DNA of 64,000 nt from the NCBI GenBank assembly GCA_963707025.1, contig CAVPOM010000005.1:64001-128000 (forward strand), read 5' to 3'. Position 1 is the stretch's first letter. Each line of letters begins with the position of its first letter. Below the pieces are notes generated by a model, which saw only the letters and a program-made list of their open reading frames with translations, searched no databases and was not told the DNA's origin. The position numbers were made by a program, and so were the translations under genes. This stretch comes from an uncultured Verrucomicrobiae bacterium (lineage in GTDB: Bacteria; Verrucomicrobiota; Verrucomicrobiia; Limisphaerales; Palsa-1400). Shown piece by piece: positions 2,951 through 38,319 of the stretch.

Positions 2951-5377
2951 ATGTCCCAGTCGCTTTTGCACCCGACTGTGAAACAGAATGCATTCCAACC
3001 GAGCGCCGGTGAGCGCGGCATAACGCGATCTATCGCAGGGATGGCCCTGGCCGTCGCTTTGCTGACGGCGGCGGGCCGGGCGCCGGCAGCGGACAGCAAC
3101 GCCGTAACCACCCTCTCGGGACTGGCCGGCCAGATTGACGCGCACCTCGCCGAGCCGAAGTTTTCCGCCGCGACTTGGGCCATCAAAGTCGTCTCGCTCG
3201 ACTCCGGTCGCACGCTCTACGAAAATCACGCCGACCGGCTGATGAGTCCCGCCTCCAACAGCAAGCTCTACACCAGCGCCGTCGTGCTGGACCGCTTCGG
3301 CGGGGATTACCAGATCGCCACCCCGATTTTTGGGACGGCGCCGGTGGACGCCTCCGGCACACTGCCCGGCGACCTGATCATTTCCGGGCGCGGCGATCCG
3401 AGTTGGAACGCCCGGCGTTTGGGCACCAATTTTTGGGACATCTTCGAGCCTTTTGTGGCCGTGCTGACCAATGCCGGCCTCCGCAGAATCAGCGGCGACA
3501 TCGTGGGCGACGCGACCTATTTTCGCGGACCGCCAACTGGTTCGAGTTGGGAGATTGACGATTTGAGCGGGGGCGAGGCGGGTGAGATTTCCGCCCTCAC
3601 GCTCAACGACAATCTCACGCAAATCCGCGTCACGCCCGGCGCGGCGCCGGACGCGCCGTGTGTCATCGCGCCCTTGCATCCCGGCACCGGGCTGGTCTTC
3701 AGCAATCAAACCGTCACGGTCCCCGCCGGAAGACCCGGCCGCGTCCAAGCCTATCGCCCCCTCCATGGCGAGACCGTTTTCCTCATGGGTCAATTGCCGG
3801 TCGGGGCGGCCAGCGAGATGATTGATTTGGTGGTGCCGGTGCCGGCGGGATGGTTTGCCGCCGCGCTGAAGGTGGCGCTGGCGCATCACGGCATTATGGT
3901 TGACGGCCGGTCGCGCGGCGCGGCCTGGCCGCAGACGCCTTGGTGGAATCCCGCCGCGCTGGTCAAGATCGGCCAAGTGCTTTCGCCGCCGATGCGCGAG
4001 GTGGTGCGCCTGTTCATGAAACCATCGCAAAATCTCGAAGCCGACACCTTGCTGGCCGACGCCGGTGAATTCACGCGCCTTTCCAACGCGCCCCCGCGGC
4101 TGACTTCCGAAGACGCCGGCCTGGCCGCCCTGCGCGAATTTCTCGCGGCCGCCGGCGTGCCCGTTGGAGACGTGAAGTTCGATGAAGGCTCCGGCCTGTC
4201 GCGCAACAATCTGACCTCCGCCGACGCCACCGTGGCGCTGCTGCTGCACATGGCCCGGCATCGCGAGGCGCAGGCTTTCATGGATTCGCTGCCCGTCGCC
4301 GGAGTGGACGGCACGCTGCGCCGCCGTTTTATCGGCACCGTCGCCGCCGGCAATGTCCGCGCCAAAACCGGCACGCTCAAATGGTCGGCGGCGGTTTCGG
4401 GCTACGTGACCAACGCCGCCGGCGAGCGCCTGGTCTTCAGCATCATGCTCAATCGTTTCGCGGGCACGGCTGGCGACACCGCCCACCAGGAAATTGATCC
4501 GCTGGTGCTGATGCTGGCCAAATTTGCCGGGCGCACCGATGTTCCGCTGGCAACGCCCTACGAGCCGCTGGGCAAACTGCTCGTGCGCCAACTCGCCTCC
4601 GCGCCCTTCCCGCATCCGGCGCGCGCCGAGGGACACCGCTATCACGACGAGTTCTTCTCCGCCAAGGAACATTATTCCGACCGCACCGTGGCCTTCTTCA
4701 TTCCCAAGCACTTTCGCGAATCGGACAAGATTGATTTCGTCGTCCATTTTCACGGCTGGAACAACACGGTGGCCGGCGCGCTGGAGCAGTACCAATTGAT
4801 CGGGCAGTTTTGCGCCAGCGGAAAGAACGCCGTTTTGATCGTGCCGGAAGGCCCGCACAACGCGCCGGATTCTTTCGGTGGAAAACTGGAAGACACCAAC
4901 GGCTTCGCAAATTTCATGGCCGAAGCCGCCGCTAATTTGCGCGCCTCGGGCCTGCTGGCCCGGACCAATTTTGAAATCGGCAACCTCATCTTGTCCGGCC
5001 ACAGCGGCGGTTACCATGTCATGGCCGCGATTTTGGATCACGGCGGCCTGTCCGCGAAAATCAAGGAAGTCTGGCTCTTCGACGCCCTCTATGGCAACAC
5101 CGAGAATTTTGTGGCGTGGCAAAAAAACGAAAACGGCCGTCTCCTTGACATCTACACCGACCACGGCGGCACCAAAGACGAGACCGAGAAACTGATGGCG
5201 TCGTTCAAGAGCAGCGGCGTCCCCTTTTTGGCGGAGGAGGATTCGGCGGCAGCGGAGGAGGCTCTGCGGACCAACAAGCTGGTGTTTCTGCACACCGGCA
5301 TGGTCCACGATGACGTGGTGGCAAAACGGGCGACCTTCGCCCAGTTCCTCAAAACCAGCAGCCTGGAAAACAAATGA
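2951..5377 (+). CDS. dacB: D-Ala-D-Ala carboxypeptidase/endopeptidase (PBP4, peptidase S13) fused to a C-terminal alpha/beta-hydrolase domain
   Basis: PASNSK (SxxK), GRGDP, SQN (SxN), GSGLSR, AKTGTL. After about 4540: HFHGWNN, LSGHSGG, LFDALY, HDD. The start is uncertain (2951 or 3041). Confidence 0.9.
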   Translation: MSQSLLHPTVKQNAFQPSAGERGITRSIAGMALAVALLTAAGRAPAADSNAVTTLSGLAGQIDAHLAEPKFSAATWAIKVVSLDSGRTLYENHADRLMSPASNSKLYTSAVVLDRFGGDYQIATPIFGTAPVDASGTLPGDLIISGRGDPSWNARRLGTNFWDIFEPFVAVLTNAGLRRISGDIVGDATYFRGPPTGSSWEIDDLSGGEAGEISALTLNDNLTQIRVTPGAAPDAPCVIAPLHPGTGLVFSNQTVTVPAGRPGRVQAYRPLHGETVFLMGQLPVGAASEMIDLVVPVPAGWFAAALKVALAHHGIMVDGRSRGAAWPQTPWWNPAALVKIGQVLSPPMREVVRLFMKPSQNLEADTLLADAGEFTRLSNAPPRLTSEDAGLAALREFLAAAGVPVGDVKFDEGSGLSRNNLTSADATVALLLHMARHREAQAFMDSLPVAGVDGTLRRRFIGTVAAGNVRAKTGTLKWSAAVSGYVTNAAGERLVFSIMLNRFAGTAGDTAHQEIDPLVLMLAKFAGRTDVPLATPYEPLGKLLVRQLASAPFPHPARAEGHRYHDEFFSAKEHYSDRTVAFFIPKHFRESDKIDFVVHFHGWNNTVAGALEQYQLIGQFCASGKNAVLIVPEGPHNAPDSFGGKLEDTNGFANFMAEAAANLRASGLLARTNFEIGNLILSGHSGGYHVMAAILDHGGLSAKIKEVWLFDALYGNTENFVAWQKNENGRLLDIYTDHGGTKDETEKLMASFKSSGVPFLAEEDSAAAEEALRTNKLVFLHTGMVHDDVVAKRATFAQFLKTSSLENK

Positions 5378-5529
5378 GCGCACGGCTTACCGAGAGATGT
5401 TGTCAGGCTTCCTTTGGCCTGAATGCTTCAGCATGGCTCAGTGTATCCTCCCAATTGCCATCACCCCATTGGCCACGTTGCGAGTTTCAAAACTAATCGT
5501 CTCGGGTGTTACCTCTTGAATCCAAACCG

Positions 5530-6123
5530 ATGACCCCCCACAACGATTTTCTCCGCTTCTTCGATGTTTTGAAAAACAACCCGGCCCTGTTCACTGCGCG
5601 CAAGGAGGACGTGTACCGTCAAGGGCTGCCGCGCTGGATGTCGCTTCCGTACCGGTTCACCGGGGTCGGATCGGTTTTTACCGGTGCGCGCTGGAGCGTG
5701 AAGGAATTGATGCCAACCGTTTACGCGAGCACGGAACTGAGAACTCTCCTCGCCGAGGCTTACTACAAGGCCCGGCGTTACGGTTGGAGGCCTGCCCAGT
5801 TCCAACCGCAGTTGACGGTTCTTATGCACTGGGAACTTCAGAGTGTGGTGGATCTGACAAACGCCACCACCCGCAGAGCACTGAAAGTGACAAAAAACGC
5901 GATTGTGAGTTGTGACTGGTCTGCAGAACAGGCGAGCGGCACGGAGCCGGTGACGCAAGCCATTGCGCGGGCGGCGTTCGAGAATCTGGCTGAGGGCCTG
6001 GTTGTCCCATCAGCACGCCGCAAAGGCGGTGTGAACCTTGTGTATTATCCGACCCATCGGCGCGACGGCACGGTGATCCAGACGCTGAACGAGGCGAACA
6101 TTCCGGTTGTGCATGGATTATGA
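5530..6123 (+). CDS. RES domain toxin (NAD+ phosphorylase family)
   Basis: YRQ...GARW...VYAS..L.EA...TQAIARAA...GLVVPSAR..GG.NLVYY, consistent with the R-E-S conserved residues. Confidence 0.88.
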   Translation: MTPHNDFLRFFDVLKNNPALFTARKEDVYRQGLPRWMSLPYRFTGVGSVFTGARWSVKELMPTVYASTELRTLLAEAYYKARRYGWRPAQFQPQLTVLMHWELQSVVDLTNATTRRALKVTKNAIVSCDWSAEQASGTEPVTQAIARAAFENLAEGLVVPSARRKGGVNLVYYPTHRRDGTVIQTLNEANIPVVHGL

Positions 6124-6196
6124 ACGATGAAAACATGCAGATCTGCCTGCATATCTGCTGGACAGGCTGTGCAGAATGGCGTAGAGTATTCCCGTT

Positions 6197-6835
6197 ATGA
6201 ACGACAAAACGGCGGGCAAAAATAAAGGTAAAGCCAAGTCTGTGCAGGTTCTCACAATTGGCGATCAGCAAGGTGGCCTGAAGCCAGTTCTTTCTGTCAA
6301 ACGCGGGAAACAATATTCTTTCGTGCCAAAGGCCCCTGCGGTTCATGGGAAACAGAAGGCGGCTTACACCTCGTATAGTCCTTCGGCTATACAAATCCAC
6401 GACGCCGGAATTGGAGCGGAATTCGCTGCTGCCCCCCCCACCGGATTGGAAACCACGCCGCTGGAAGACGAAACGGGACTGGCTGATCAACTGGTCTCAG
6501 AGGTTGCTCGTGACAGTGCCGACGTGAGGGCATTGTGCGAAACTTATAAACTCAAGCGGGAAGAGTTGGGACGGTTGACCGGCTTTTCACTGCGGGCGCT
6601 GGCCGAATGGGCTGCGGGCAAGTTGCCGAGCCAGCCAGCCCGGAGGCGTTTGCAGGAAGTGCGACGGCTGTTGGATGCGCTGGCTCAGATTGTGAAGCCC
6701 GAAAGCATTCCCCAATGGCTTCATCAACGCAACCCGGCGTTTGACCGGTTAAGTCCTCTACAGATAATCGAACTGGGCGAAATTGACCGCCTCTGGGCGA
6801 TGGTGCATGACCTGGCCTCCGGCCAGCCAGACTGA
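6197..6835 (+). CDS. Xre/MbcA/ParS-type antitoxin (HTH plus DUF2384-like toxin-binding domain) with N-terminal extension
   Basis: HTH LKREELGRLTGFSLRALAEWAAG. C-terminal WLHQRNPAFDRLSPLQII..GE motif. Lies next to the RES gene. Confidence 0.85.
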   Translation: MNDKTAGKNKGKAKSVQVLTIGDQQGGLKPVLSVKRGKQYSFVPKAPAVHGKQKAAYTSYSPSAIQIHDAGIGAEFAAAPPTGLETTPLEDETGLADQLVSEVARDSADVRALCETYKLKREELGRLTGFSLRALAEWAAGKLPSQPARRRLQEVRRLLDALAQIVKPESIPQWLHQRNPAFDRLSPLQIIELGEIDRLWAMVHDLASGQPD

Positions 6836-7546: not shown

Positions 7547-8931
7547 ATGTTCCCGGCGCGGCTATTCACCTTCCTCTCGCTCCTGACGCTGTTCGCCGGC
7601 TGCCAGAACCGCGTCAATCCAACCCGCTCCGGCGCGGCAGCCGGTGATCGGGCAACCCAGCCCGGCACCATCTGCGGCACAGGCGTCAAACCAACCCGCT
7701 CCGGCGCGGCAGCCGGTGAAGCTGGGGGTGGAGGTGCTGTTTGCAGAGCATCTGGATTTGATTCGGGGCAAGCGCGTCGGCCTCATCACCAATCCGACCG
7801 GCCTGGACAGCAAGCTGGACAGTGTGATCGAACTTTTCCGGGCGCATCCCGAGGTGAGGCTGGTCGCGCTTTACGGCCCGGAGCATGGCGTGCGCGGCAA
7901 CGCGCAGGCTGGCGAATACGTGGCGTTTTACTTCGATGAGCAATTGAAATTGCCCGTGTTCAGCCTTTACGGGCAGTCGCAAAAGCCGCCGGCCGGCATG
8001 CTGACCAACATTGACGAATATATGCGCCGGTTCGACACCCAACATGCCGGCAAACAGGTCGAGGCCGGGATGATGCAATCGGTGGACGTGATGGTCTTTG
8101 ACCTGCAGAGACGTCGGCACGCGGGTCTATACCTACATCGCCACCATGGCCTACGCCATGCAGGCCTGCGCGGAGGCGGGCATTCCGTTCCTGGTTCTGG
8201 ACCGGCCAAATCCCGTCAACGGCGTCACGATGGAAGGGCCGGTTTTGGAATATCCGGCGCTCAGTTCGTTCATCGGCCTGTATCCCATTCCCTTGCGCCA
8301 CGGCATGACCGCCGGGGAACTGGCGCGGCTGTTCAACGGGAAGTTCCTCAAGAAAAAAGTGGATCTCACCGTCGTGCCCATGGAGAACTGGACGCGGGAG
8401 GAATGGTTTGATCAAACCTCCCTTCCGTGGGTCATCCCCTCCCCCAACCTGCCGACGCCCGACTCGGCCACGGTCTATCCCGGCCAGGTTTTGCTGGAGG
8501 GAACCGGCTTGTCCGAGGGACGCGGCACGACCAAGCCGTTTGAGTTGTTCGGCGCGCCCTGGATTGACGGCTACGTGCTGGCGCGCCAATTGAACCAATT
8601 GCATCTGCCCGGCGCCAAGTTTCGCGAGGCTTGGTTCACCCCCACGTTTTCCAAATTCTCCGGCCAGCTTTGCGGCGGCTGCCAGTTGCACGTCACCGAC
8701 CGAAGCGCCTACCGGCCCGTCGCCACGGTCCTGGCCGAACTGGCCGTGATCAAACAACTTTACGGGGACAAACTGGAACTGCACGCTTCCTATTTCGACA
8801 AGGTGATGGGCACCTCCAGCGTGCGCGAGGCGCTGCTGTGGGGCGAGCCGGCGGAAAAGATTGTGGCCGGATTCAAACCCGGCCTGGATGAATTTGCCCG
8901 ATTACGCGAACCATATTTGCTGTACCATTGA
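7547..8931 (+). CDS. namZ: Exo-beta-N-acetylmuramidase NamZ (DUF1343/YbbC) lipoprotein, with two +1 frameshifts (about 7607 and 8110)
   Basis: Lipobox LFAGC, RVGLITNPTG, PEHG, SLYG, FDLQ/DVGTRVYTY (split by an extra A), DRPNP, RHGMTAGE, PSPNLP, SEGRGT. Contains a 37-bp internal duplication (7611-7647 and 7683-7719). Confidence 0.88.
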
Positions 8932-8942
8932 GGAACAATGCC

Positions 8943-10130
8943 ATGCGCTCAAAAATCCTGATCCTCCTCTGGCTGCTCTGGCCCGGCTTTGTGCGGGGAG
9001 TTTTGGGCGAAGCTTTCCATGCGGACAAGCTGGCGGCCATGGACGCGGCGATTGAATCGGCCATTGCGGACAAGAGGTGCCCGGGAGGCGTCCTCTGGCT
9101 GGAGCATGGCGGGACGGCGTATCACAAGGCCTTTGGCAGCCGGGCGCTGGTCCCGGAGCGGGAAGCGATGACCGAGGACACCATTTTCGACGCGGCGTCG
9201 CTGACGAAGGTGATCGCCACGACCCCCGCCGTGATGCTGCTGATCCAGCGCGGCCAGGTGAAGCTGGATGAGCCGGCGCATACTTACCTGCCGGAGTTCA
9301 CCGGCGGCGGCAAGGAACTGGTGACGGTGCGCGAATTGTTGACACATACCTCCGGCCTGCCTCCGGACATCGAAACAAAATCCGACTGGCACGGCCAGGC
9401 TGAGGCGGTCAGGAAGGCGTGCGCCGAAGCCTTGCAATCCAAGCCCGGCGCGGCCTTCCGCTACAGCGACATCAATTTCTTTCTGCTGGGCGAAATCGTC
9501 CAGCGTGTGGCCAAGACCCCGCTGGAGGTTTTTGTCCAGCGCGAAATATTCGGGCCTTTGCAGATGACCGACACGGGCTATTTGCCGGCGCCGGACAAAC
9601 GGCCGCGCATCGCGCCGACCGAAGTGGTGGACGGCCAGCTCTGGCGCGGCGTGGTGCATGATCCGACGGCGCGGAAGATGGGCGGCGTGGCGGGGCACGC
9701 CGGACTTTTCATCACCGCTTCCGACCTCGCCCGCTACGCCAGGATGCTCCTGCATCTGGGCGAACTGGACGGGGTGAGGATTTTTAAGCCCGAGACAGTC
9801 AAGCTGATGACGAGCGTGCAGTCCCCGCCGGATATTTCGGCCCGCCGCGGCCTGGGCTGGGACATTGATTCCCCATACGCCGGGCCGCGCGGGGCGGTTT
9901 TTCCGGTGGGTTCCTATGGCCACACCGGGTGGACGGGCGGGTCGTTGTGGATTGATCCATCTTCGAAAACATTCGTGATTTTTCTCTCCAACCGCAATCA
10001 CCCGACGGAATCGGGGAGCGTCGTGGCGTTGCGGCGTCAGCTCGGCACGCTCGCGGCGCAAGCCCTGGCCGATTACGACTTTGCCCCGGCGCGGGCGGGG
10101 GCGACAAATTCCGCGGCCCCATCGCGGTGA
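8943..10130 (+). CDS. Secreted serine hydrolase, beta-lactamase class C/AmiE-like family
   Basis: ASLTK (SxxK), LLTHTSGL, YSD, VHDP.A..MGGVAGHAGLF, GHTGWTG. Directly downstream of namZ. Confidence 0.9.
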   Translation: MRSKILILLWLLWPGFVRGVLGEAFHADKLAAMDAAIESAIADKRCPGGVLWLEHGGTAYHKAFGSRALVPEREAMTEDTIFDAASLTKVIATTPAVMLLIQRGQVKLDEPAHTYLPEFTGGGKELVTVRELLTHTSGLPPDIETKSDWHGQAEAVRKACAEALQSKPGAAFRYSDINFFLLGEIVQRVAKTPLEVFVQREIFGPLQMTDTGYLPAPDKRPRIAPTEVVDGQLWRGVVHDPTARKMGGVAGHAGLFITASDLARYARMLLHLGELDGVRIFKPETVKLMTSVQSPPDISARRGLGWDIDSPYAGPRGAVFPVGSYGHTGWTGGSLWIDPSSKTFVIFLSNRNHPTESGSVVALRRQLGTLAAQALADYDFAPARAGATNSAAPSR

Positions 10131-10145
10131 TGTCGCGACCATCCT

Positions 10146-11252
10146 TCAATGGCCGGCCCAGTGGCCGAACCGGTTTTTGGGGATGGGCGCGTTTTCCGGA
10201 TAGACCAGGTAAACGGCGTTGGCCGATTTTGTCCAGGCGTGGAGGACGTCTGCCCGCTTGTAAATCTGGCGCACGGAGTCGCCGCGCTCCAGACGGGCGG
10301 CCGGGTCGTTGATCACCACGTCGCCATTTTCGGTGAAGCCGATGCAGACAATCAAGTGCCCGGCGGCATCATTGGGGCGGCCCGGCCGCAGCCAGTCCCA
10401 GCGGGCGGAGAGAATTACCGGAATACCGGCGGAGATCCAATCCTCCGCCTCCGAAAGATCGTCAAAGCGTGTCACGCAGCTTCTCATGCCGCTGAAACTG
10501 CCGGCGAAGGCGGTGTTGAACGGCCAGTTGCCGGTGCCGGAAAGGCCGGTGTCATAAACCGCCGCCGCGACCGCTGGCACGTTCAGGTCCATTTCCGGAC
10601 GATGCAAGACCTCCGCCCAGCGTGACAGAGCCATGGAGAGAGAGGCCGGGCTGCACCAGCCTCTTTCGTTGGGATAGCCATGCTGCGAATGTTCCGGCGT
10701 GGCGATGATTTTGCCCCAGGCCGCCCGGTTGGGAGGACGGGTGAGACGCGGAACTCGTGTGTTGGCAAAGGAAACGCCCAGGAATTTGAGCGCAGGCCGG
10801 ACGCCCGTCGCGCCGGCGAGCGTCACCCGAATTTGCGCCGCGTCGGCCGGCTCAGTCAAAACCAGCGTGTCCGTGTCCACCGTTCCTTCAGCGTCCCTTT
10901 GTCCGCGGACGCTGGCCCGGGGATGGGATGGGTTGTCCAACGACCATAAGGCCATGGTGTAAAACTTGGTTTGGTGTCCGCCGGAAATGCCGGACGCCTC
11001 CATCTTCAGATACGTTCCCGCGGGCGCGCTGGCATTCCAGGAAACGATGAGTTGATTCCAAGCAATGTGTGATTTGACGGGCGGGGAGAGGAGAACCAGG
11101 CCGCCATCTCGGGAAGGAACGCGCGTGAATTTTGAAAAATCCGTGAACGCCACAAAGCGGCTGAAATTACTGGCGGGTTGAACCGGCGCGGTTTGGCAGC
11201 CGGAAAAAATCACGGCGGCGAGCGCGGCCAAAAGTCTGGCTGGGCGATTCAT
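10146..11252 (-). CDS. Peptidase C39-like lipoprotein
   Basis: Lipobox IFSGC. SQ..WCSPAS (catalytic Cys), GNWPFN, GHLIV, NDP. Confidence 0.88.
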   Translation of the reverse strand: MNRPARLLAALAAVIFSGCQTAPVQPASNFSRFVAFTDFSKFTRVPSRDGGLVLLSPPVKSHIAWNQLIVSWNASAPAGTYLKMEASGISGGHQTKFYTMALWSLDNPSHPRASVRGQRDAEGTVDTDTLVLTEPADAAQIRVTLAGATGVRPALKFLGVSFANTRVPRLTRPPNRAAWGKIIATPEHSQHGYPNERGWCSPASLSMALSRWAEVLHRPEMDLNVPAVAAAVYDTGLSGTGNWPFNTAFAGSFSGMRSCVTRFDDLSEAEDWISAGIPVILSARWDWLRPGRPNDAAGHLIVCIGFTENGDVVINDPAARLERGDSVRQIYKRADVLHAWTKSANAVYLVYPENAPIPKNRFGHWAGH

Positions 11253-11265
11253 AAAAGCGGCTCGG

Positions 11266-12378
11266 TCACCAATGGCCAAATCGGTCGGCGGGCAGCGGCC
11301 AGTTTTCCGGATAGACCAGATAGACGGTGTTGCGGGAGGTCGCCCAGGCGCGAAGGACATTGGCCCGCCGGTAAATGTGCCGCACACTTTCCACTTTCAC
11401 GTCCGTCCACGGATCGTTGATGACCAGGTCGCCGCTTTCTGTGAAACCACGGCAGACGGTCAGGTGGCCGCTGAGATCCTCGGCCCGGCCATCCTGCAAC
11501 AAATCATACCGCGCGGAAATGATCACCGGGATGCCCGCGGCAATCCAATCTTCCAGTTCGGAAATATCGCTCAAGCGGGTCACGCAGGCGCGGAGGCCCG
11601 GGAGGCTCCCGGCGAAGGCGGTGTTGAACGGCCAATTGCCGGTGGCCCTGGAAAAATTGTGATCGAAAACGGCGGCGGCGGTTTCCGGCGCGTCAAAATC
11701 CCAATCCGGGCGATGAGCCACGGCCGCCCATCGCGCCAGGACCATGGAGAGGGATGTCGGACTGCACCAACCGCCGCCACCCTCGTAAGATTGCTGCGAG
11801 CGCTCCGGCGTGGGAATGATTTTACCCCAGGCGGCGCGGTTCGGCGGCGACGGAGCGGGCGTCACGTTCGTGGCGCAAAAGCAAAGGCCGAGATATTTCA
11901 AAGCGGGCCGTCCGCCATTGGCGCCGCCGCAGGTGAGGCGGACCTGGGCGGCCCTGGCAGCCCGGTTCAAAACAAGCGTGTCCACCTCGACATCGCCGTC
12001 GCCATCCTTCTGGCCGGTGACGCTGGCGCGAGGGAAGGCCTTGTTGTCCGGGGACCACCATCCCATCGAGTAGAATTTGGTGGTGTGATCAGGCTCAATG
12101 GCCCTGGCTTCGATCTTCAAATACGTTCCCGCCGGCGCGCTGGCATTCCAGGAAACGATGAGTTGATTCCAGCGAAGGCGTGATTCAATTTGCGGCGAGA
12201 GCAGGACGGTCGCGCCGTCGCCGGGTTCGGTGCGCGTGAATTTTGAAAAATCCGCAAGCCCGACAAATTGGCTGAAATCGCGGCCGGTTGGCACCGGAGC
12301 GCTGTGGCAGCCGCCCACCATCACCGCGGCAAGAGGGATGGAAAGGCGCCTCCCGAGGTTGGGAATGAAAAGGCTCAT
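11266..12378 (-). CDS. Peptidase C39-like lipoprotein (tandem paralogue)
   Basis: VMVGGC, SQ..WCSPTS, GNWPFN, GHLTV, NDP. Co-linear with 10146..11252. Confidence 0.88.
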   Translation of the reverse strand: MSLFIPNLGRRLSIPLAAVMVGGCHSAPVPTGRDFSQFVGLADFSKFTRTEPGDGATVLLSPQIESRLRWNQLIVSWNASAPAGTYLKIEARAIEPDHTTKFYSMGWWSPDNKAFPRASVTGQKDGDGDVEVDTLVLNRAARAAQVRLTCGGANGGRPALKYLGLCFCATNVTPAPSPPNRAAWGKIIPTPERSQQSYEGGGGWCSPTSLSMVLARWAAVAHRPDWDFDAPETAAAVFDHNFSRATGNWPFNTAFAGSLPGLRACVTRLSDISELEDWIAAGIPVIISARYDLLQDGRAEDLSGHLTVCRGFTESGDLVINDPWTDVKVESVRHIYRRANVLRAWATSRNTVYLVYPENWPLPADRFGHW

Positions 12379-12424
12379 TTCGGCGGGGCGGACAGTTCTT
12401 TGAGTAATGCGTCCGTCATGGATG

Positions 12425-12540: not shown

Positions 12541-12692
12541 CATGAGTGAGGTTTGCTTTTCACGGCAAGCAGACAACGGCTCCTCATACCGAATTGCCGG
12601 CGCCTCCGCAAGTTTTTCTTTATGGCCCGTTTAATCTGGATAATACTGCCGAAGTCAGCGGCGCGTTATCCGCGATCGCCGCCAGAAAAAAC

Positions 12693-16639: not shown

Positions 16640-16656
16640 TGTGAGGAGAGCAGACT

Positions 16657-25297: not shown

Positions 25298-25393
25298 CGA
25301 TCTCAGGGCGGCATCAGCTGACGCATTTCATGGCGGGAACGATTGTGCTGGTGTTTTTATCAAAAATGTGGCAGATTACAAAGTATTATTGAA

Positions 25394-29574: not shown

Positions 29575-31357
29575 TCACGGCTCCGCTATCCACTGTTCGT
29601 AGGCGCGCGGGCCGAAGTAAGTGTAGCCGCGGCTTTCCAGCGCGGTGCCGGTCAGCAGGGCGTGGATGAATCCGTTGAGCTCCACCTGTTTGGTGTGCAG
29701 GACCGCCTTGTCCGGATTCTCGTTGAGCAGGAACTGGATCCTCCCGCCCAGCGCCGTGTATCGCTCCCATCCGCCCGCCGCTTCGCCTGTAAAGTCGAAT
29801 TTTGTGGCGAGGTCCGACTGCATGGCGTGGCTCCGTCCCCAGGTCCCCCCTTGTTCGCTCACAAAGGTCTTCCCGTTCAGGAGCGCGATGCTGTCGTGGT
29901 AGGCCAGCACACACAGATAGTGCGGGTCCGGCCGGGAGAGCCATTGCGCCAGCTTCCCGGCGTGGCCTTTGGCGGCGTCATAGCGGTAATCGCTGTCCAG
30001 AAAAGCGATGCGCTCGACCTCGTCCGGAATGCGCTCCACGCTGTCCAGATATGCGAACGTGAAACTGCCGCCGCCGCTGTGTCCGGTCAGCACCAGGCGC
30101 GGCGGTGGCCCGGGGAAACGATCGCGCAGGGCGGCCACGATTTGCCCGGCGCGCCGGCCGTCGGGATCGTGGGCGCTGAGCCAGGCGGGCCAGGCATTGC
30201 TGGAGCATTGCAGATAGGCCACCGCCAGGGTCAGCCCGGTCCAGCGCTCCCGCAGCCAGCGGGTCTGGGCGCCGATGTGTTGAATGTCGGAATGCCAGTC
30301 CTCCCCGGGCTTGATTTTGCGGCCGATGGTTTGCTCGATGGTGTTGCCGTTGGGCAGCGCGTAGAGGACCAGACGCACCGGCTTGTTCGGATCGAGGGTC
30401 GCCCGGCAGGTTCAGCAGCACGCGCACGCCGGGTTCGAAATGCAGCGTCTCGTTCTTTTCGTGAAATCGCGCGTCGCGGCCCGCCGGGGCCGGCGCCGCC
30501 GCCGCGGCAACTGCATTCGATTCGGGCGGATGCACTGTTCCATAGCGCGGGTCCAACAGCGGCCCTTCATCGCTCAACAAAACGCACCTCTTTGCGTCCG
30601 CCAGCACCGCCGCGACGGTCGTGGCCTGGCCATCCACCGTCATGCTCCGCCGGACCAGGCGCGTGCCCTGGCTGTAATCCACCCACGAGGCCGCGTGCCC
30701 GAGGTAAAGCGGCTGGATCGGCGTGCCGTCCAGGCGATGCCAGCCGTAGATGGCGACTTTGTCCGGCGCGTTGACCAGCCGGCGCGTGAGCACCAGGTCC
30801 TTCTTGTCCCCTGCCACCAGCGCGCCCAGCGGATGCGCCGCCAGAACCCCGGCACGCTGCCGGCCGACGATTTCGTTGTGTTGCTGGAAGACCGGCACGG
30901 TGGTCATCCCGGCACTGGGCGGGATCGGCATGGGCGGGAGTTTGACGGCGGCGGCGGCATAGATGTCCCCGACCATGCGAGGAGTGGGCAGGACGCAATC
31001 CAGCTTGTCCGCCAGCGCCTGCGCCGTGGCCGGCGAAACCGGGACCAGGAAATAATCATCATCCGCCCCGATGGCAAGATAGTCGGGCGACACTTCGTAA
31101 ACCGCGGTTGTGTCCCGCGCCTCCACCGGGCGCGTGACCGTGACGGGGACAAAGTGCCGCCAAAAATCGGGCACATTGCCGCGTGCGACTTCCGCCATGA
31201 TCTCCTGTTCGCGTGTGGCCAGATCCAGGGCGGCGATCCGGCCGGCAAATGCCGCCCCCTTGGCCGCGTCCGGCGGGCGCGGCGGCAGCGACACATCACC
31301 CGCCAGCATCGAGCCTGACGCCAGAATCCAAAGGAGCATTGCCACCCCGCTGCTCAT
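29575..31357 (-). CDS. Secreted two-domain protein (uncharacterised N-domain plus alpha/beta hydrolase), with a +1 frameshift at about 30403
   Basis: N-domain GNVPDF, DYLAIG, LPT, KKD, AIYGWH, PIQP, VDYS. Removing one G gives ..LPATLDPNKPVRLVLYALPNGN.., followed by GHSGGGS and FLDS. Confidence 0.75.
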
Positions 31358-31548: not shown

Positions 31549-32973
31549 CTATTCTGGCGGAATTTCTTCCGCCTTGAAATCCCAGTTCCATTGGTTGAAG
31601 TAAAGATTGCCGCCGCGCCATTCGACTTCGCCGCGCTGGAAATCCACGATCTCGGAGCGGAAGAACAACTTGGCCGGATAAAGCGGCTGGGCGTAATCGG
31701 TGTTGACCACAAACCGGGCGCCGTCAATGCCGCCGAGGTAAAACCATTTCTCAGGATCCTGCTCACTGTGAACCAGCCCGTAATACACGTCCACCGGCAT
31801 CCAGCCGTAGGGCGCCAGGTAGATTTCGCACCAATCGTGCATGTTCTTTTCCGGCCCGGTGACCCAGCCGGATTCCCAGCGGGCGGGGATGGCGTTAAAA
31901 CGGCACAATGTCATAAACGTCATGGTTTCAATGCCGCAGTCGCCATGGCCGCGGCTGAGGGCGTAGTGCGGCAGGCAATCCAGCGTGGAATATTCCCGCG
32001 CCGAGGCCCAAGGCACATGCTCAGCCACCCATTGAAAAATGCGCCGCGCCTTGAGATAGGGATTGGTCTCCGCTCCAACGATGTCCCGCGAAAGGTTCTT
32101 GATTTCGTCGGAAAAAACAAGATGCGGCGGCTGCCCGGCCAGGAACGGAAGCAGGGCCGGATCGTTGGTGGAAACCGGCGTGACCCGGGTTGGATCAATG
32201 GGCTGGTAAAAGGCGCGGCTCGTGCAGGCAAACACAATTTTGAATTGCGCCGGCTGCCCGCTTAAGGCCGGTTTTTCCAGATAGACTGAGGCGATGGCAT
32301 CGTTGGTGCCGGATAGAATGTAACGCGGCGGATCGGTGGAGATGAGCCGGATGTCCGTTTGCCGGTTTCCCGCATGAGGAAATGGCAGCCAGGCGCGAAT
32401 GGTTTCGCCGGGCGGAACCGCTCCCGGTTTGACGCTCAACGAGCAGGTGACACGCCAGGACCTTGGCGTGCTGAGTTTCTCCCCCGTCTTGTCATGGTTC
32501 GCCAGCACCTTTTCAACGTCTTCCAACCGGTATGGCAGCGGGCGAAAAGTGGCGCCGGGATGCTCCCTCATTCTGAGCGCCCGGGCTTCCGGGTTGATGA
32601 GAAACAAATTGTTCGCCGCCCGGTGGAAATACCGGCGCGTCCCGTCAATATCCAAAAACTCCACGGCTCCGCTTTTTTCCCAATCGCCAAACTGTTCGCC
32701 ACTGAGGGACGGCGCGATGGCGCGGGCCTCGCGGAAAACCTCCTCGCGCGTCTTGTCAAAGTCCAGGCCGATCCGCTCCATCCGGTCGCTTTGAAAAAGC
32801 AAGTCCTCCCGCGCCTGGAAATTCAAGTTGGTCCGGGTCAATTCCTGCATGATCTCCGTCCGCGCCTGCCGCCACTGCCCGGCGCCGACCAGCCTGCTGA
32901 TTTCTTCAATCGAGGCGGCCCGGAGGCCCGCCGCCGGCAACACCAGCAAGACAAAGAATAAAAGCGATCTCAT
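31549..32973 (-). CDS. Secreted transglutaminase-like domain protein
   Basis: Signal peptide, GHGDCG, IPARWESG, HDWCEIY..GWMPVD (Cys-His-Asp triad). Confidence 0.9.
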   Translation of the reverse strand: MRSLLFFVLLVLPAAGLRAASIEEISRLVGAGQWRQARTEIMQELTRTNLNFQAREDLLFQSDRMERIGLDFDKTREEVFREARAIAPSLSGEQFGDWEKSGAVEFLDIDGTRRYFHRAANNLFLINPEARALRMREHPGATFRPLPYRLEDVEKVLANHDKTGEKLSTPRSWRVTCSLSVKPGAVPPGETIRAWLPFPHAGNRQTDIRLISTDPPRYILSGTNDAIASVYLEKPALSGQPAQFKIVFACTSRAFYQPIDPTRVTPVSTNDPALLPFLAGQPPHLVFSDEIKNLSRDIVGAETNPYLKARRIFQWVAEHVPWASAREYSTLDCLPHYALSRGHGDCGIETMTFMTLCRFNAIPARWESGWVTGPEKNMHDWCEIYLAPYGWMPVDVYYGLVHSEQDPEKWFYLGGIDGARFVVNTDYAQPLYPAKLFFRSEIVDFQRGEVEWRGGNLYFNQWNWDFKAEEIPPE

Positions 32974-33095
32974 GCGCAGCCGGCACGATGAAGGGATTGA
33001 AAGCAAATGTAAATCGGTTTTTGGCGATGAACTGGCGCGTTTTGCCACCCTTTGGCGCTTGCGCTGGACCCGCGCCTGGGTTTAATCGGTCTGGC

Positions 33096-33995
33096 ATGAG
33101 TCCGCCCGCCAACGTGTCCTTGCTGGTGACGATTGCCTTTCTGGCGGGGGCCTGCACCACGATCACGCCAACCATGAATTTCGATTTGCAAAACTACACC
33201 CTGGATTACAACACGCCGGTCAACCCCGTGCTGCAGGCCGCCCTGGAAAAAATGGACGCCGCTCTGCGCGCCCAATACGGCATGAGGCCGGGGCAGACGG
33301 CAACCGGCCTGCTGGATTTGCGGACAATGGCCTTGGCGATGATTGATCCCGACCGCGAGGAATACGCCGCCAGCGTCGCCAAGATCGGCATTCTGCTGGC
33401 CTGGTTTGAATATCATCCGGCGGCCGCCGCCAACCTGGACGCGCCGACACGCCACGAACTGGGTCTGATGATCAAGGCTTCCGACAACGAGATGGCGGCA
33501 AAGTTTTCCCATGAACTGGGCTTGCCGCAAATCCAGCGGGTGCTCGACGCGTATCATTTCTACGACGCCCATCGCGGCGGCGGCCTGTGGGTGGGCAAAC
33601 ATTACGGCCAGGACACCGCACGCATCGGCTCGCCGGCCGGTGACAATTCGCACGCCGCGACGGTGCGTCAGTTGCTGCGCTTTTATCTGTTGCTGGAACA
33701 AGGAAAACTCGTCTCGCCCCCGGCCTCAAAAACCATGCTCGCCATTTTCGCCTCGCCCGACATTCCGCAAGACAACCTCAAATTCGTCAAGGCGCTGGCC
33801 GGGCGCGACGCGCAAATTCTGCGCAAATGGGGTTCGTGGCAGGATTGGCAGCACGACACCGCGATCATCACCGGGGCCGGGCGGCATTATATCCTGGTCG
33901 CGTTGACCCATCACCCCAGGGGCGATGAATACCTGGCCGGTCTGGCCGTGGCGGTGGATGATTTGATGATTCGCCGCGCGGCCGCAGAACCATGA
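33096..33995 (+). CDS. Class A beta-lactamase-like serine hydrolase lipoprotein
   Basis: Lipobox LAGAC, ASVAK, SDN, and KWG in place of KTG. Confidence 0.82.
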   Translation: MSPPANVSLLVTIAFLAGACTTITPTMNFDLQNYTLDYNTPVNPVLQAALEKMDAALRAQYGMRPGQTATGLLDLRTMALAMIDPDREEYAASVAKIGILLAWFEYHPAAAANLDAPTRHELGLMIKASDNEMAAKFSHELGLPQIQRVLDAYHFYDAHRGGGLWVGKHYGQDTARIGSPAGDNSHAATVRQLLRFYLLLEQGKLVSPPASKTMLAIFASPDIPQDNLKFVKALAGRDAQILRKWGSWQDWQHDTAIITGAGRHYILVALTHHPRGDEYLAGLAVAVDDLMIRRAAAEP

Positions 33996-34068: not shown

Positions 34069-34803
34069 CTAAGAAAAACTAAACAGTTGGCCAAATGGCG
34101 CGGCCTGGATATTGGCCAGCCCATTTATTCCGAGGTCCTTAAAAGTGGAGGACAGGACGACTTTTCCGCCCGCCAGGCCGGCGGTGTACATTTTGTAGTA
34201 GGCCACCCGGCCTGGCTCATCGGTCTTGTAGAAATTCAGGCAATGGATGGCAGGCGGGTTTTTCCCGTCCCGGGGAATTGCCAGCACGAGCAGATTCAGC
34301 GCTGAATTTGGCCGGGTTCGCTTTTTCAATTCCGGCAGCGCCTTTTCGATTCGGCCAGCCTTCGCCATGACGGCCAGCGCCCATTCGCTGTCAACCACAC
34401 GGCTTGCCGGTGGATGAGGCGGATTGACCGCGCCATTGTGCGCCAAAAGCAGGACTTCCTTGTCCGTCGCGGCCAGGAATGGGTGGGAACAAATCGGGGA
34501 GTTGAGTGTTGGATCAGAGGCCAGCCTGGAATGGAAAATGGCATAAACGTTCCTGCCTTTGACCGGCGGCAACGGAACATCCTCCTGCCAGGCGGGAAGT
34601 GAACTGCGGTAGTGATGCAAACGGCCGCCGTCGTAGAGCACAAACCCCCATCCGTGCGGATGGCATGTGGATGCCGGGCCAAAGGCATCTTTTACGTAAG
34701 GGTCGCATTTTGAGCCGTCGCGGAAGGCCCGGTAAAGGGTCTGGAGGCCTGCGCTCTGCGCCTTCCCGCGCTTGCCGCCAATGAAAGCAATCATCCGGCA
34801 CAT
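34069..34803 (-). CDS. Class II glutamine amidotransferase (Ntn hydrolase, YafJ/EgtC-like)
   Basis: N-terminal MCRM, HPHGWG, HSRLAS, SHPF, HNG, DSE. Confidence 0.88.
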   Translation of the reverse strand: MCRMIAFIGGKRGKAQSAGLQTLYRAFRDGSKCDPYVKDAFGPASTCHPHGWGFVLYDGGRLHHYRSSLPAWQEDVPLPPVKGRNVYAIFHSRLASDPTLNSPICSHPFLAATDKEVLLLAHNGAVNPPHPPASRVVDSEWALAVMAKAGRIEKALPELKKRTRPNSALNLLVLAIPRDGKNPPAIHCLNFYKTDEPGRVAYYKMYTAGLAGGKVVLSSTFKDLGINGLANIQAAPFGQLFSFS

Positions 34804-35100: not shown

Positions 35101-36786
35101 ATGAAGATGACAACCCAATTTCTCGGCCTGATCCTCTGCCTGGCGGCGGGGACCTGCCTTGCCGTGGACACAAACGCACCCGCTCTCATTCCCGCGCCGC
35201 GGAAGATGTCGCTGGGCGACGGGGTGTTCCCACTCAAGCCCGGGACGATGATCTTTACGGATCACGCGTCCGTAGCGACCGGCCAACAACTGGCGGAGCG
35301 GTTGCGCAGATCCACGGGGTATCCATTCCAGGTCAGCTCCAGGGTTTTTGCGGGCAGCGCCATCCGGAACGCCATCCTGTTGACGACCCAAAAAGCCAGG
35401 GCGGGCCTGGGGCCGGAGGGCTACGAACTGTCGGTCGCGACCAACTCGGTGGTCATCCGCGCGCCGGCCCAGGCCGGTTTGTTCTACGGCGCGCAAACCC
35501 TGGCGCAAATGCTGCCGCCGCAAATCTTTTCCACCAATCTCGTCAGCCGTGAAAACTGGCTCATTCCGTGCGCGCAAATTGAGGATCAACCCCGGTTTGC
35601 CTGGCGCGGCATGATGCTCGATGTCAGCCGGGATTTCTTCACCAAAGAGGAAGTCGAACGACTGCTGGACCTGCTGGCCCTGCACAAGATCAACGTCTTT
35701 CACTGGCATTTGGTGGACAACAACGGGTGGCGGATCGAGATCAAGAAGTATCCCAAACTGACGCAGATCGGGGCCTGGCGGGAGCACAGCCGGGTCACGC
35801 CGCAGCGGCCAAGCGCCTCCAATCCGGAAACGAACACGGCCCATCCGGCTTGGGCCCCTGCCCTGCCCTCTGCTTATGGACCGGATGGCCGTTACGGCGG
35901 CTTTTACACGCAGAAGGAGATTCGCGAAGTCGTCGCTTACGCCAGCGCGCTGCATATCACCATCGTGCCGGAGATCGAATTGCCGGGGCATTCGGCGGCC
36001 GCGCTCGCCGCTTATCCTGAATTGAACTGCACCGGCGTGCTGCGCGGACAGGTGTATTGCGCGGGGCGGGACGCGAGCTTTGATTTTCTGGAGGGCGTGC
36101 TGACCGAGGTTTTCAATCTCTTTCCCGGCAAATACATTCACATCGGGGGCGACGAGGTGAACACCGCCAACTGGGCCAGGTGCGCCGAATGCCGGGCGCG
36201 CATGGAGCAAGAAGGATTGACCAACGTGGATCAATTGCAGAGCTATTTCATCCGGCGCATCGAGAAATTCGTCAACGCCCGCGGGCGCAAGCTGGTGGGC
36301 TGGAGTGAAATCATGAAAGGCGGGCTGGCCCAAAGCGCCACCGTGATGGACTGGATCGGCGGCGGAGTCGAAGCCGCCACCGCCGGGCACGATGTCGTCA
36401 TGTCGCCCAATGCCGACGCCTACCTGGACCACTACCAGTCGCAGAACCATTCCACCGAGCCGTGGGCCATCGGCGGATACCTGCCATTGAGCAAGATTTA
36501 CGCCTTCGAACCCATTCCCGCCAAGCTGGACGCGCAATTCCAGTCACACATCCTGGGCGCGCAGGGCAATCTCTGGACGGAGTACGTCGCCTCCTTCAAG
36601 CATGTTGAATACATGGCCTTTCCGCGCATGTGCGCTCTGGCGGAAGTGGACTGGTCGCCCAGGGAGGCGCGCAATTGGGATGACTTTTCCCGCCGCTTGC
36701 AAACCCATCTCCTGCGCTTGGATGAACTGGGCGTCAATTACCGCCCTGTCTCCGTTGATACCCGGAGATCGGATTCGGCCCGTTAG
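35101..36786 (+). CDS. Beta-N-acetylhexosaminidase (GH20)
   Basis: Signal peptide, DQPRFAWRGMMLDVSR, HWHLVD, PEIELPGH, HIGGDE, GNLWTE, FPR. Confidence 0.95.
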   Translation: MKMTTQFLGLILCLAAGTCLAVDTNAPALIPAPRKMSLGDGVFPLKPGTMIFTDHASVATGQQLAERLRRSTGYPFQVSSRVFAGSAIRNAILLTTQKARAGLGPEGYELSVATNSVVIRAPAQAGLFYGAQTLAQMLPPQIFSTNLVSRENWLIPCAQIEDQPRFAWRGMMLDVSRDFFTKEEVERLLDLLALHKINVFHWHLVDNNGWRIEIKKYPKLTQIGAWREHSRVTPQRPSASNPETNTAHPAWAPALPSAYGPDGRYGGFYTQKEIREVVAYASALHITIVPEIELPGHSAAALAAYPELNCTGVLRGQVYCAGRDASFDFLEGVLTEVFNLFPGKYIHIGGDEVNTANWARCAECRARMEQEGLTNVDQLQSYFIRRIEKFVNARGRKLVGWSEIMKGGLAQSATVMDWIGGGVEAATAGHDVVMSPNADAYLDHYQSQNHSTEPWAIGGYLPLSKIYAFEPIPAKLDAQFQSHILGAQGNLWTEYVASFKHVEYMAFPRMCALAEVDWSPREARNWDDFSRRLQTHLLRLDELGVNYRPVSVDTRRSDSAR

Positions 36787-36798
36787 CAGCCCGTTAAG

Positions 36799-38319
36799 TC
36801 AACCTGGCTGACTGGCGGCGCCATCGTCGCGCCCGGCCTCATGGACGCGAATGTAGCGGCGCAGCGCAAGCAGGCCCGCTGGCGCGACCAGGCTGCACAC
36901 GGCCACGATCAGCCAAAGAGTTTGCGAATGGCGCGGGCCGGTTTCCGGACAGTAGCGCATGAGCGACTGGCCAGAAAATATCCCGATCAGCATTTTGGCC
37001 AGCACCCAGGGCACGTAAGACAGGGCGCCGTAGGAAGCCTCCTGTCCTTTGGGCGCAATCGCCGCCGCATACTCATAGACGCGCGGCGAATAGAAAGCTT
37101 CTCCAATCGAGAGCATGAGGACAAAAAGCGCGATCATCACGTAATACGGATGCACGCCGCCCTTGAGGCCGAGAAAGAGGTGGCCCACGAAATTCCCGGG
37201 CCAACCGTTGGCCATCGGCTCGAACCAGGCCGGCGGCAGCGCCATGATGAAAATGGATGCCGACGAAATAAGGCCGCCCACAATCACCATCGAGTAGGCG
37301 GAGAACTTCTGGGTGAGCGCGCCAATGACCGGCGCCAGCACAATAATCAGGAGGCTGTTCATCCCCCACAGGATTCCGATGGGCGCGCCCGGGCCTAACT
37401 CGCGGATGCCAAAAGTCGGATAAACATAGTCCATCTGCCGGTAAATCAGCTTGATGAACCCGATCAAAACAAGAAAGGCCAGGAGCCGGTAGAATCCGGT
37501 TTGCCGCAACAAGGTGGCAAGGAGGCGGACGGTTTCCCGCGACGCTTCGCGCACCGTCAGACCAATGGATTGCATGAAGCTCCGGTCTGAAGGCCGTGGT
37601 TTCAGGGGAACCAGCTTGAGACCTTCGTCGGTCGCCTCTGCGCCTTCGCGCAATAAAAAGACCAGCGGCAGCACGAGCACCTCCAGTATCAGACTGACCA
37701 TGAAAAGTGCCTGATAGGTCGAGATGTGCAGGCCCGGCGCATCCAGATGGCCGTGCTCTCCCAAGCCCCTGCGCACATGATCGAAGAGCCAGGCTGCGAT
37801 GAGGAATCCGACATTCATCATCGCGTAAATCATGGAGAAGGACATGGACCGTTGCCGGGTGTTGGAATAGCGGCGCGCCGCCGCCACCAGCACCGGCCCG
37901 GTCAGCGCTTCGCCGACCGCCAGCGGCAACAATCCGCCTGCCAGGGCCAGCCATTTGACCGTCGTCAAGACCATGACCAACCGCGAGGCGATGCAGAGGC
38001 CCGTTCCGAGAAAGAGCGTCCGGCGCATCCCCAGCACGTCCGTGAGCGAGCCTACCAACAGCATGGTCACCGTCATCATCATGGACCACGCGGCCACCAA
38101 AGGAAGGGCCTGCGCATCACTGTAACCCAAATCGGAGTGAAGCCAGAGGACGATGGTTGAGTTGGTCAGGGCGTAGCCGGCGATGACGACGAACTTGATC
38201 GCGAAGATGATCCACAATTCGGGAATCGCGTCCTTGAGGACACCAAACTTGGCCATGAAACGGATCAGGGCGGAAGTGTCAGCGGCGCCCGCTTTGCCGC
38301 CTGGAGCGGTGTTTGTCAT
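36799..38319 (-). CDS. MFS transporter, oligopeptide (POT-like) type
   Basis: About 12 TM segments, GSLTDVLGMRR, FSMIYAMMNVG, GEAFYSPRVYEY..IAPKGQEASY. Confidence 0.8.
   Translation of the reverse strand: MTNTAPGGKAGAADTSALIRFMAKFGVLKDAIPELWIIFAIKFVVIAGYALTNSTIVLWLHSDLGYSDAQALPLVAAWSMMMTVTMLLVGSLTDVLGMRRTLFLGTGLCIASRLVMVLTTVKWLALAGGLLPLAVGEALTGPVLVAAARRYSNTRQRSMSFSMIYAMMNVGFLIAAWLFDHVRRGLGEHGHLDAPGLHISTYQALFMVSLILEVLVLPLVFLLREGAEATDEGLKLVPLKPRPSDRSFMQSIGLTVREASRETVRLLATLLRQTGFYRLLAFLVLIGFIKLIYRQMDYVYPTFGIRELGPGAPIGILWGMNSLLIIVLAPVIGALTQKFSAYSMVIVGGLISSASIFIMALPPAWFEPMANGWPGNFVGHLFLGLKGGVHPYYVMIALFVLMLSIGEAFYSPRVYEYAAAIAPKGQEASYGALSYVPWVLAKMLIGIFSGQSLMRYCPETGPRHSQTLWLIVAVCSLVAPAGLLALRRYIRVHEAGRDDGAASQPG

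Follow-up and report, generated by a model that had tools for sequence, protein, structure and literature searches.

A recurring peptidoglycan-salvage locus in a Limisphaerales bacterium in which the usual ligases of the wall tripeptide were not found

Soil holds a large store of carbon and nitrogen in the form of bacterial cell wall, whose degraders are poorly characterised. The present analysis concerns a cluster of peptidoglycan-related genes at positions 2951 to 38319 of a 64,000-nucleotide stretch of DNA (the window; positions 64,001 to 128,000 of contig CAVPOM010000005.1, assembly GCA_963707025.1) from an uncultured Verrucomicrobiae bacterium of the order Limisphaerales. In agreement with that order, its closest protein relatives bear the names Verrucomicrobiota, Limisphaerales or Pedosphaera. 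The cluster is a real, recurring peptidoglycan-salvage locus of a known kind, represented by the amiE-nagZ-namZ genes of Bacillus subtilis and by a cluster of Tannerella. We read it as equipment for foraging and salvaging peptidoglycan, in a bacterium without the standard route to the wall tripeptide, with a probability of roughly 0.6, and it would probably supply both food and ready-made wall parts from other bacteria.

In B. subtilis, according to the available portion of PMC8054146, NagZ, AmiE and NamZ digest peptidoglycan in sequence. The locus described here shares with that operon (murQ-murR-murP-amiE-nagZ-namZ) a secreted NamZ encoded beside a putative AmiE-type amidase, an exo-N-acetylglucosaminidase and a MurQ-dependent catabolism; it differs in having GH20 for the GH3 NagZ, sugar porters for the phosphotransferase-system protein MurP, a MurQ that lies elsewhere and is fused to a kinase, and additional genes for DacB, LdcA, an epimerase, Amidase_2 and several uncharacterised hydrolases, in a host where MurC, MurD and MurE were not detected. 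The NamZ1 cluster of Tannerella forsythia, in the part of the preprint available (bioRxiv 10.1101/2021.12.02.470905), is likewise NamZ-centred, and belongs to a Gram-negative dependent on an external source of one wall building block; that building block is N-acetylmuramic acid (MurNAc), whereas in the present host, where MurA and MurB are retained, it appears to be the peptide. AmpG was not found in the host genome. As for Fidelibacter multiformis IA91, the accessible text of PMC11652737 describes a wall built from foreign muropeptides, and carbon and energy likewise drawn from other bacteria; this organism belongs to another phylum and cannot make MurNAc or D-alanine, while the present host keeps MurA, MurB and Ddl; the dependence of IA91 was shown by culture, whereas that of our host is deduced from genes. 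Finally, in the recycling pathway of Gram-negatives, as far as the consulted portion of PMC3060825 goes, an amidase, LdcA and Mpl return L-Ala-gamma-D-Glu-mDAP (mDAP, meso-diaminopimelate) to UDP-MurNAc, Mpl ligating the tripeptide, and the same would apply here; Mpl is dispensable there given MurC, MurD and MurE, but would be the sole detected entry in this host. A literature search restricted to main texts, with subscription papers mostly outside its coverage, returned no account of this cluster or of Mur ligase loss in the order; for Limisphaera, GH171 genes are merely mentioned in the available text of PMC13608581.

The evidence that carries this reading comes first from wall synthesis in the host genome (6.96 Mb in 18 contigs, 88% complete). 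Its dcw cluster has the order ftsI-murF-mraY-x-ftsW-murG-murB-ddl-ftsQ-ftsA-ftsZ (G000:C18:322001-342000, L275). Three further Mur ligase genes occupy the murE, murD and murC slots in the control genome G043, and the dcw clusters of G009, G015 and G473 have the same three gaps as the host. When the dcw genes of G043 were used as tblastn queries, only MurF, Mpl and a weak third match were obtained in the host; MurC, MurD, MurE (by profile hidden Markov models and tblastn) and MurI were not found in this 88% complete genome. At the family level, MurD exceeded its cut-off in 0 of 31 genomes vs. 17 of 30 others, the MurE score band was reached by no family genome vs. 14 of 30 others, and every family genome has at most two Mur-ligase central domains. 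The second Mur-ligase match of the host is Mpl (TIGR01081, 470.9 bits over a cut-off of 388.7), the murC model giving 298, under its 335.1; this identity was verified in the host and in G009 (80% identical) and was assigned by score band elsewhere. Glutamate racemase was found in none of four genomes and in the one control. The host keeps MurA, MurB, MurF, Ddl, MraY, MurG and FtsW, with MurA present in all five genomes examined, and MurQ (TIGR00274) is over cut-off in two of five genomes, the host and G015. In the host, a BadF-type kinase is fused to MurQ (G000:C13:55314-57164; L276:7314-9164), which likely makes this gene a MurK-MurQ fusion. Since MurC, MurD, MurE and MurI were not found, the net supply of stem peptide probably comes from foreign walls, which narrows the earlier proposal of a pathway acting on foreign or own wall.

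Concerning intermediate genomes of the order, G031, G042 and G054 have a MurD over cut-off and no match in the MurE band, and G050 and G051 have a low-scoring MurD. This pattern suggests a stepwise loss of the Mur ligases.

Gene families of the window were assigned with Pfam and NCBIfam profiles at their cut-offs, and all those named in the first-pass annotation were recovered in their places. Two of its labels, the class II amidotransferase (GATase) and the POT-type transporter of the major facilitator superfamily (MFS), matched the right families at scores below cut-off (GATase_4, 15.7 bits; POT (PTR2), 19.3 bits for a cut-off of 27, so that the POT/PTR assignment does not hold). It had overlooked the sugar porter, the pair made of a large Ig-domain protein and a prepilin-type protein, and an upstream arm with ROK, PIG-L and NagB genes. 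The statement that most of the proteins carry signal or lipoprotein peptides agrees, by eye only, with eleven of them (DacB, NamZ, AmiE-like, both C39, large Ig protein, Amidase_2, lectin-fold/GHSGG, transglutaminase-like (TGase-like), KWG and GH20 proteins) and fails for LdcA, the epimerase and the GATase. The locus extends upstream beyond the window, and two elements interrupt its span, a RES/Xre pair at 5506-6835 and, at about 14-18.5 kb, an HNH/dinD-like insert. Its features are as follows, in window coordinates.

1..1264, minus strand: sugar porter SP1 (PF00083), cut by the window edge, 65% identical to SP2
1609..2376, minus strand: prepilin-type N-methyl protein, a doubtful member (the motif occurs 45 times in the genome)
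2879..5377, plus strand: DacB/PBP4-like DD-endo/carboxypeptidase fused to a putative alpha/beta-hydrolase domain of GHSGG type (4544-5377); SNSK, SQN, KTG; likely start about 3041
5506..6835, plus strand: RES/Xre-like toxin-antitoxin pair inserted between dacB and namZ, outside the pathway
7547..8931, plus strand: NamZ (GH171 exo-N-acetylmuramidase family), lipoprotein-like N-terminus, two frame breaks
8928..10130, plus strand: AmiE-like serine hydrolase of beta-lactamase fold, immediately 3' of namZ
10146..11279, minus strand: C39-like cysteine peptidase b, lipoprotein-like
11266..12399, minus strand: C39-like cysteine peptidase a, N-terminal jelly-roll domain, start approximate
12546..13928, plus strand: NagX-like membrane protein, proposed glucosamine transacetylase family
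15495..17555, plus strand: HNH endonuclease and dinD-like gene, lower-GC insert, outside the pathway
18891..20687, minus strand: sugar porter SP2, with copies 69-77% identical in 6 of 16 NamZ loci
21209..25165, plus strand: secreted 1318-aa Ig-domain protein, unnamed 311-aa domain at 23456-24388
25343..26278, plus strand: prepilin-type protein, a two-gene cassette with the large Ig protein
26354..27409, plus strand: Amidase_2 N-acetylmuramoyl-L-alanine amidase, lipoprotein-like
27452..28432, plus strand: LdcA-type LD-carboxypeptidase (S66), signal peptide not seen
28436..29476, minus strand: L-Ala-D/L-Glu epimerase-like protein of the enolase superfamily (MR/MLE)
29575..31357, minus strand: C-type-lectin/FGE-fold domain with a second putative GHSGG alpha/beta-hydrolase domain, single gene, frame break about 30400
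31549..32973, minus strand: secreted transglutaminase-like cysteine protease (Transglut_core; GDCG, HDWxE, PVD)
32988..33995, plus strand: class-A-like penicillin-recognising serine hydrolase (KWG; SVAK, SDN, KWG), lipoprotein-like, likely start about 33096
34069..34803, minus strand: class II (N-terminal Cys) amidotransferase-like Ntn hydrolase, rare
35101..36786, plus strand: GH20 beta-N-acetylhexosaminidase, presumed NagZ stand-in
36799..38322, minus strand: MFS transporter, weakly POT-like and a candidate importer of peptides; also present in the clusters of G019 and G021

The closest NamZ type was found in 16 of 401 genomes of the order, the host included, and G019 was then added; the 16 non-host NamZ loci were inspected over 8-60 kb each, and the resulting counts are lower bounds, several contigs stopping early. 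In several families of the order, the closest relatives of NamZ lie within a comparable cluster whose genes are arranged differently. The AmiE-like gene and the DacB-type GHSGG domain are present in 10 of the 16 loci, the epimerase in 9, LdcA and NagX in 7 each, and DacB, a sugar porter, a GH25 lysozyme and a prepilin in 6 each, followed by Amidase_2, GH20, C39 and another Beta-lactamase2 protein (5 each), alanine dehydrogenase (4), and the lectin-fold domain and the ROK kinase (3 each). The TGase-like, KWG, GATase, MFS and second GHSGG types occur once each, and NamZ stands alone in three loci. Gene order varies between families of the order, and the association has therefore outlived rearrangement. 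The single genes are common in relatives, mostly apart from each other: in a survey of 60 relatives (61 genomes with the host), NamZ was found in 38/61, Amidase_2 in 37/61 (including all five of the same genus), full-length C39 in 32/60, TGase-like in 25/61, GHSGG in 23/61, the lectin-fold domain in 22/61 and KWG in 9/61.

As for the pathway, what the analysis shows are gene identities, catalytic motifs, clustering and the Mur gene pattern; the activities, the substrates of transport, the passage of tripeptide to Mpl and the part played by every uncharacterised gene are all inferred. Cross-links would be cut by the exported DacB, and probably also by C39 and the TGase-like protein; stem peptides would be released by Amidase_2 and the AmiE-like hydrolase, and sugars peeled from the non-reducing end by GH20 and NamZ alternately. 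Amino sugars would pass through the sugar porters to the ROK/MurK kinase, MurQ, the PIG-L deacetylase and NagB, and NagX, for whose family a glucosamine transacetylase function has been proposed (PMC9007349, available text), may re-acetylate glucosamine. Peptides would be imported, perhaps via the MFS, and trimmed by LdcA, after which Mpl would ligate L-Ala-gamma-D-Glu-mDAP to home-made UDP-MurNAc and MurF and Ddl would complete the precursor, excess peptide going to the epimerase and alanine dehydrogenase.

Several points weigh against this reading. The host genome is just 88% complete, and a tripeptide synthase not recognised by our searches is possible. AnmK was not found in five of five genomes, host included, and to this is added the lack of an AmpG match in the host mentioned above. 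The cluster genes are scattered in the single-contig genome G009, and NamZ, C39, TGase, lectin-fold, KWG and GHSGG gave no match in five genomes of the same genus (64-92% complete). These same five are also without a MurD match, yet keep Amidase_2; the cluster is therefore not required for life without MurD, and is an optional expansion rather than a minimal kit. For the MFS, G003 and G473 gave no match, yet the MurD-positive G043 has it, and C39 homologues occur in Haladaptatus archaea without adjoining wall genes. A catabolic use is suggested by the epimerase and alanine dehydrogenase, the former of which would use up the dipeptide instead of sparing it. Furthermore, the NamZ loci are tied by transfer and descent, and their counts are thus non-independent.

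Part of this evidence would fit a purely nutritional locus, taking carbon and nitrogen from foreign peptidoglycan or N-acetylglucosamine glycans, with the wall tripeptide provided by a minimal family-wide kit (Amidase_2, importer, Mpl) or by an unrecognised ligase. The epimerase and alanine dehydrogenase, together with ROK, PIG-L and NagB, are catabolic, the same-genus genomes do without both cluster genes and MurD, and one Verrucomicrobia operational taxonomic unit was enriched on E. coli peptidoglycan (PMC7511781, available text). However, LdcA and DacB would yield peptides that Mpl accepts, no de novo route was detected in the host, and feeding and wall supply are compatible with each other; we consider this alternative possible but rather unlikely.

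The foraging and salvage reading is accompanied by the claim, made in the first-pass annotation, that the uncharacterised members would be new muropeptide enzymes, which finds support for some genes more than for others. The DacB-type GHSGG and C39 are good candidates, GHSGG being ranked first and C39 second. The former lies directly upstream of namZ (1.3-2.6 kb) in 10 of 16 loci, free or fused to DacB, and its residues H153-S154-G155, D180 and H255 (domain numbering) are invariant among 25 sequences, as would suit an alpha/beta-hydrolase with a G-x-S-x-G nucleophile elbow. Pfam and PDB sequence searches gave no match for this domain; it has 2552 representatives at E <= 0.001, with no Pfam name among those scanned. 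Fifteen longer representatives, scanned among the 150 listed of the 2552, had GDSL, Beta-lactamase2 and DUF4174 partners once each, the others being unnamed, and one further representative is a DacB fusion. Most likely, GHSGG is an esterase or peptidase that would unblock the substrate for NamZ or AmiE. Away from the cluster, stand-alone DacB-type GHSGG genes repeatedly adjoin a GDSL/SGNH hydrolase (six loci), and an ester-removing role, as an O-acetyl esterase, is for that reason our lead guess. A wall gene, among those tested for, was near scattered GHSGG genes in 2 of 13 loci.

Both C39 proteins belong to Peptidase_C39_2, a family listed as a phage lysin catalytic domain in the available text of PMC8223927, and Q202, C212, H312 and D329 are invariant in 29 of 29 aligned sequences. 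The model of C39a (predicted local distance difference test, pLDDT, 88.9) has a papain-like fold with an N-terminal jelly-roll domain that resembles carbohydrate-binding modules. The best structural matches of its catalytic domain are the pseudomurein endoisopeptidase PeiR (8Z4H/8Z4N) and the B. anthracis C39-like 3ERV (Foldseek E 5e-5; VIA: Z 16.0 with 147 aligned at a root-mean-square deviation (rmsd) of 2.5, and Z 17.2 with 162 aligned at an rmsd of 3.1); C39a is only 22% identical to them and adds the jelly-roll domain, and bacteriocin-processing C39 domains match it equally well (Z 16.6). C39 lies within 14 kb of namZ in its five NamZ loci, whereas none of the 21 inspected loci, out of 29 scattered orthologues found, had a tested wall gene. 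Ten plasmid homologues were found and five inspected: two Deinococcus copies are near an M23 peptidase, one of them also near an amidase, and no wall gene was seen near one further Deinococcus copy and two haloarchaeal ones. Haladaptatus plasmids (L269, L273) encode the same two-domain C39-like protein. Scattered C39 orthologues often have a 4HBT thioesterase on one side and a Dabb-domain gene on the other (six loci).

For the other uncharacterised genes, the single occurrences of TGase-like, KWG, GATase and MFS among the NamZ loci give the claim less support, though their closest homologues lie in cluster fragments. Of the two closest TGase-like homologues (71-74%), the one in G021 adjoins the epimerase, C39 and MFS and the one in G559 adjoins amiE-namZ, while orthologues at 32-39% identity are scattered (three such loci were inspected, at 20 kb). 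The KWG protein is over the cut-off for Beta-lactamase2 (PF13354), with SVAK, SDN and KWG in the positions of the SxxK, SxN and KTG-like motifs; its gene belongs to the cluster of G473, adjoins GH20 and the Ig/prepilin pair in G015, and had a wall gene nearby in one of seven other loci. The GATase, with a cysteine right after the first methionine, was found in 1 of 151 genomes of the phylum (the host only) and in five metagenome loci, mostly too short for context. A 78% orthologue is beside Amidase_2 and LdcA in G019, and one metagenome copy is near a GH20-like gene. From its family, it could presumably be a gamma-glutamyl or amide hydrolase. As a whole, the uncharacterised genes co-occur with peptidoglycan genes in NamZ loci as far as GHSGG and C39 are concerned, but most homologues outside the cluster do not.

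Upstream of the window, SP1 is followed by a ROK kinase, a PIG-L deacetylase, a DegT-type aminotransferase, a GFO oxidoreductase and NagB, and ROK and PIG-L are also within the G019 and G255 clusters. The large-Ig/prepilin pair occurs in 6 of 16 NamZ loci. None of 20 loci anchored on this pair had a tested wall gene, and a wall-specific role was rejected in favour of a general cassette, commonly apart from wall genes. The unnamed 311-aa domain of the large Ig protein is fused to the lectin-fold domain in relatives. A dedicated tripeptide importer was likewise rejected for the MFS, given its distribution in G003, G473 and G043.

The absence of wall genes around scattered C39 and large-Ig loci, the single occurrences of TGase, KWG, GATase and MFS, and the toxin-antitoxin, HNH, BREX-3 and integrase genes of the region would all agree with a core that recycles the own wall only, the uncharacterised genes being unrelated hydrolases gathered in a mobile region. 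We hold this to be improbable: recycling gives no net tripeptide if MurC, MurD and MurE are missing, GHSGG precedes namZ and C39 lies close to it in the proportions given above, and the closest TGase homologues (G021, G559) and GATase orthologue (G019) are beside wall genes. A contact weapon lysing live neighbours, to which the GH25 lysozymes of 6 of 16 loci, the secreted Ig-rich proteins and the pilin-type protein might point, is very improbable, the kit consisting mainly of exo-acting enzymes and being linked with importers and catabolism, with the Ig/prepilin pair usually apart from wall genes and no immunity gene noticed.

Concerning the core enzymes, DacB is over cut-off for both S13 (PF02113) and TIGR00666, with a C-terminal GHSGG domain of 277 aa, and NamZ for both of its domains (PF07075 and PF20732). 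The AmiE-like protein (PF00144) has intact SLTK, YSDIN and HTGW motifs and is fused to NamZ in G009; its best solved matches are esterases, and the AmiE label is a tentative one that follows from PF00144, motifs and position. The NagX-like protein scored 263 bits with NF046061, under its cut-off of 480. No GH3 NagZ was found among the scanned window proteins, which have GH20 instead; the search for GH3 was confined to the window.

The protein at 29575-31357 is fused and intact in relatives. Its lectin-fold N-domain (30530-31357) has at least 3705 homologues, none named. The AlphaFold2 model (pLDDT 94.6) found its best match in the C-type-lectin/FGE fold (Z 8.3, rmsd 2.2, 108 aligned), with many same-fold matches at Z 6-7.6; the fold is that of the Bd2740 C-terminal domain, PvdO, CarF and the variable proteins of diversity-generating retroelements (C-type-lectin/FGE-sulfatase fold), from which the domain differs in having no Pfam or PDB sequence match. 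Judging from this model, it is more likely a binding module than a peptidase. A reading of its DYSHG motif as a YkuD L,D-transpeptidase was dropped as less probable, no invariant cysteine being there, the fold matching C-type-lectin/FGE, and no YkuD appearing among the fold matches listed. In 80 GTDB loci, the domain was with the second GHSGG type in 36, mainly fused, and a tested wall gene was near in six; many Bacteroidota forms bear a type IX secretion system (T9SS) tail in place of GHSGG. In two Bacteroidota loci (L161:9986-12076 and L177:9986-12106), the proteins combine the lectin-fold domain with an FN3-like region, an unnamed domain and a T9SS tail; their C-terminal module may resemble proteins that carry a xanthan lyase annotation, such as the one at the head of the Tannerella namZ1 cluster. 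Searches of PDB sequences were of no help with the lectin-fold domain, KWG, C39a, GHSGG or GATase, and the matches of atlas searches were unnamed clusters.

The namZ gene is spread over three frames, with breaks at about 7600-7720 and 8108, and the gene at 29575-31357 over two. A near-identical contig of run X1 is without the 8108 break, protein P0001, from a different assembly, reads across the break at about 30400, and an intact 447-aa NamZ orthologue is present in G015. As independent assemblies are without two of the three breaks, all three are probably assembly indels; in an approximate check across the genome, 18 of 229 conserved genes were split between frames, some of these being false positives. 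The Pro/Ala/Gln linker of namZ (7619-7719) has a 29-base exact repeat at 72-base spacing, and this 72-bp duplication (7619 and 7691) was ruled out as cause of a frame break, being in frame.

Passengers of the region are the RES/Xre pair, the HNH/dinD insert and, from 38600 on, the BREX-3/integrase genes. No RES/Xre pair was seen between dacB and namZ in the other NamZ loci, and the dinD-like gene has a 97% identical copy on contig C6 of the host. At 38600-43192, an integrase-like gene adjoins a BREX-3 brxF and a brxC/DUF6079 gene that covers just half of its family's profile. Between C39a and nagX (12400-12560) lies a dispersed repeat with many matches in the host and same-genus genomes, and in 4 of 16 NamZ loci (L230, L238, L244, L234) a pyridoxal-phosphate (PLP) enzyme resembling 8-amino-7-oxononanoate synthase, so labelled from reading its sequence, stands beside nagX. 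Further downstream, a lower-GC stretch (46483-57646) holds three tandem paralogous secreted beta-helix/Ig/RCC1-repeat proteins, and 58590-64000 carries consecutively two PAP2 phosphatases, a PLP-dependent enzyme and a thiamine-pyrophosphate enzyme, a possible biosynthetic cluster.

A broader scenario, tentative and in its entirety doubtful, would be that of a widespread soil and freshwater family of Verrucomicrobia unable to make stem peptide and living on the walls of others, in which the mobile cluster would be the full kit, GHSGG, C39 and TGase-like proteins would be new peptidoglycan-processing families, and the Ig/prepilin pair and sugar porters would replace SusC/SusD in capture and uptake. 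The cluster itself provides a short ranked list of candidate enzymes, in hosts seemingly unable to start their own stem peptide. For the family, Mpl is likely the essential entry to wall synthesis, and the reading of an Mpl route predicts a simple culture supplement, the tripeptide or digested wall, for members that are mostly uncultured.

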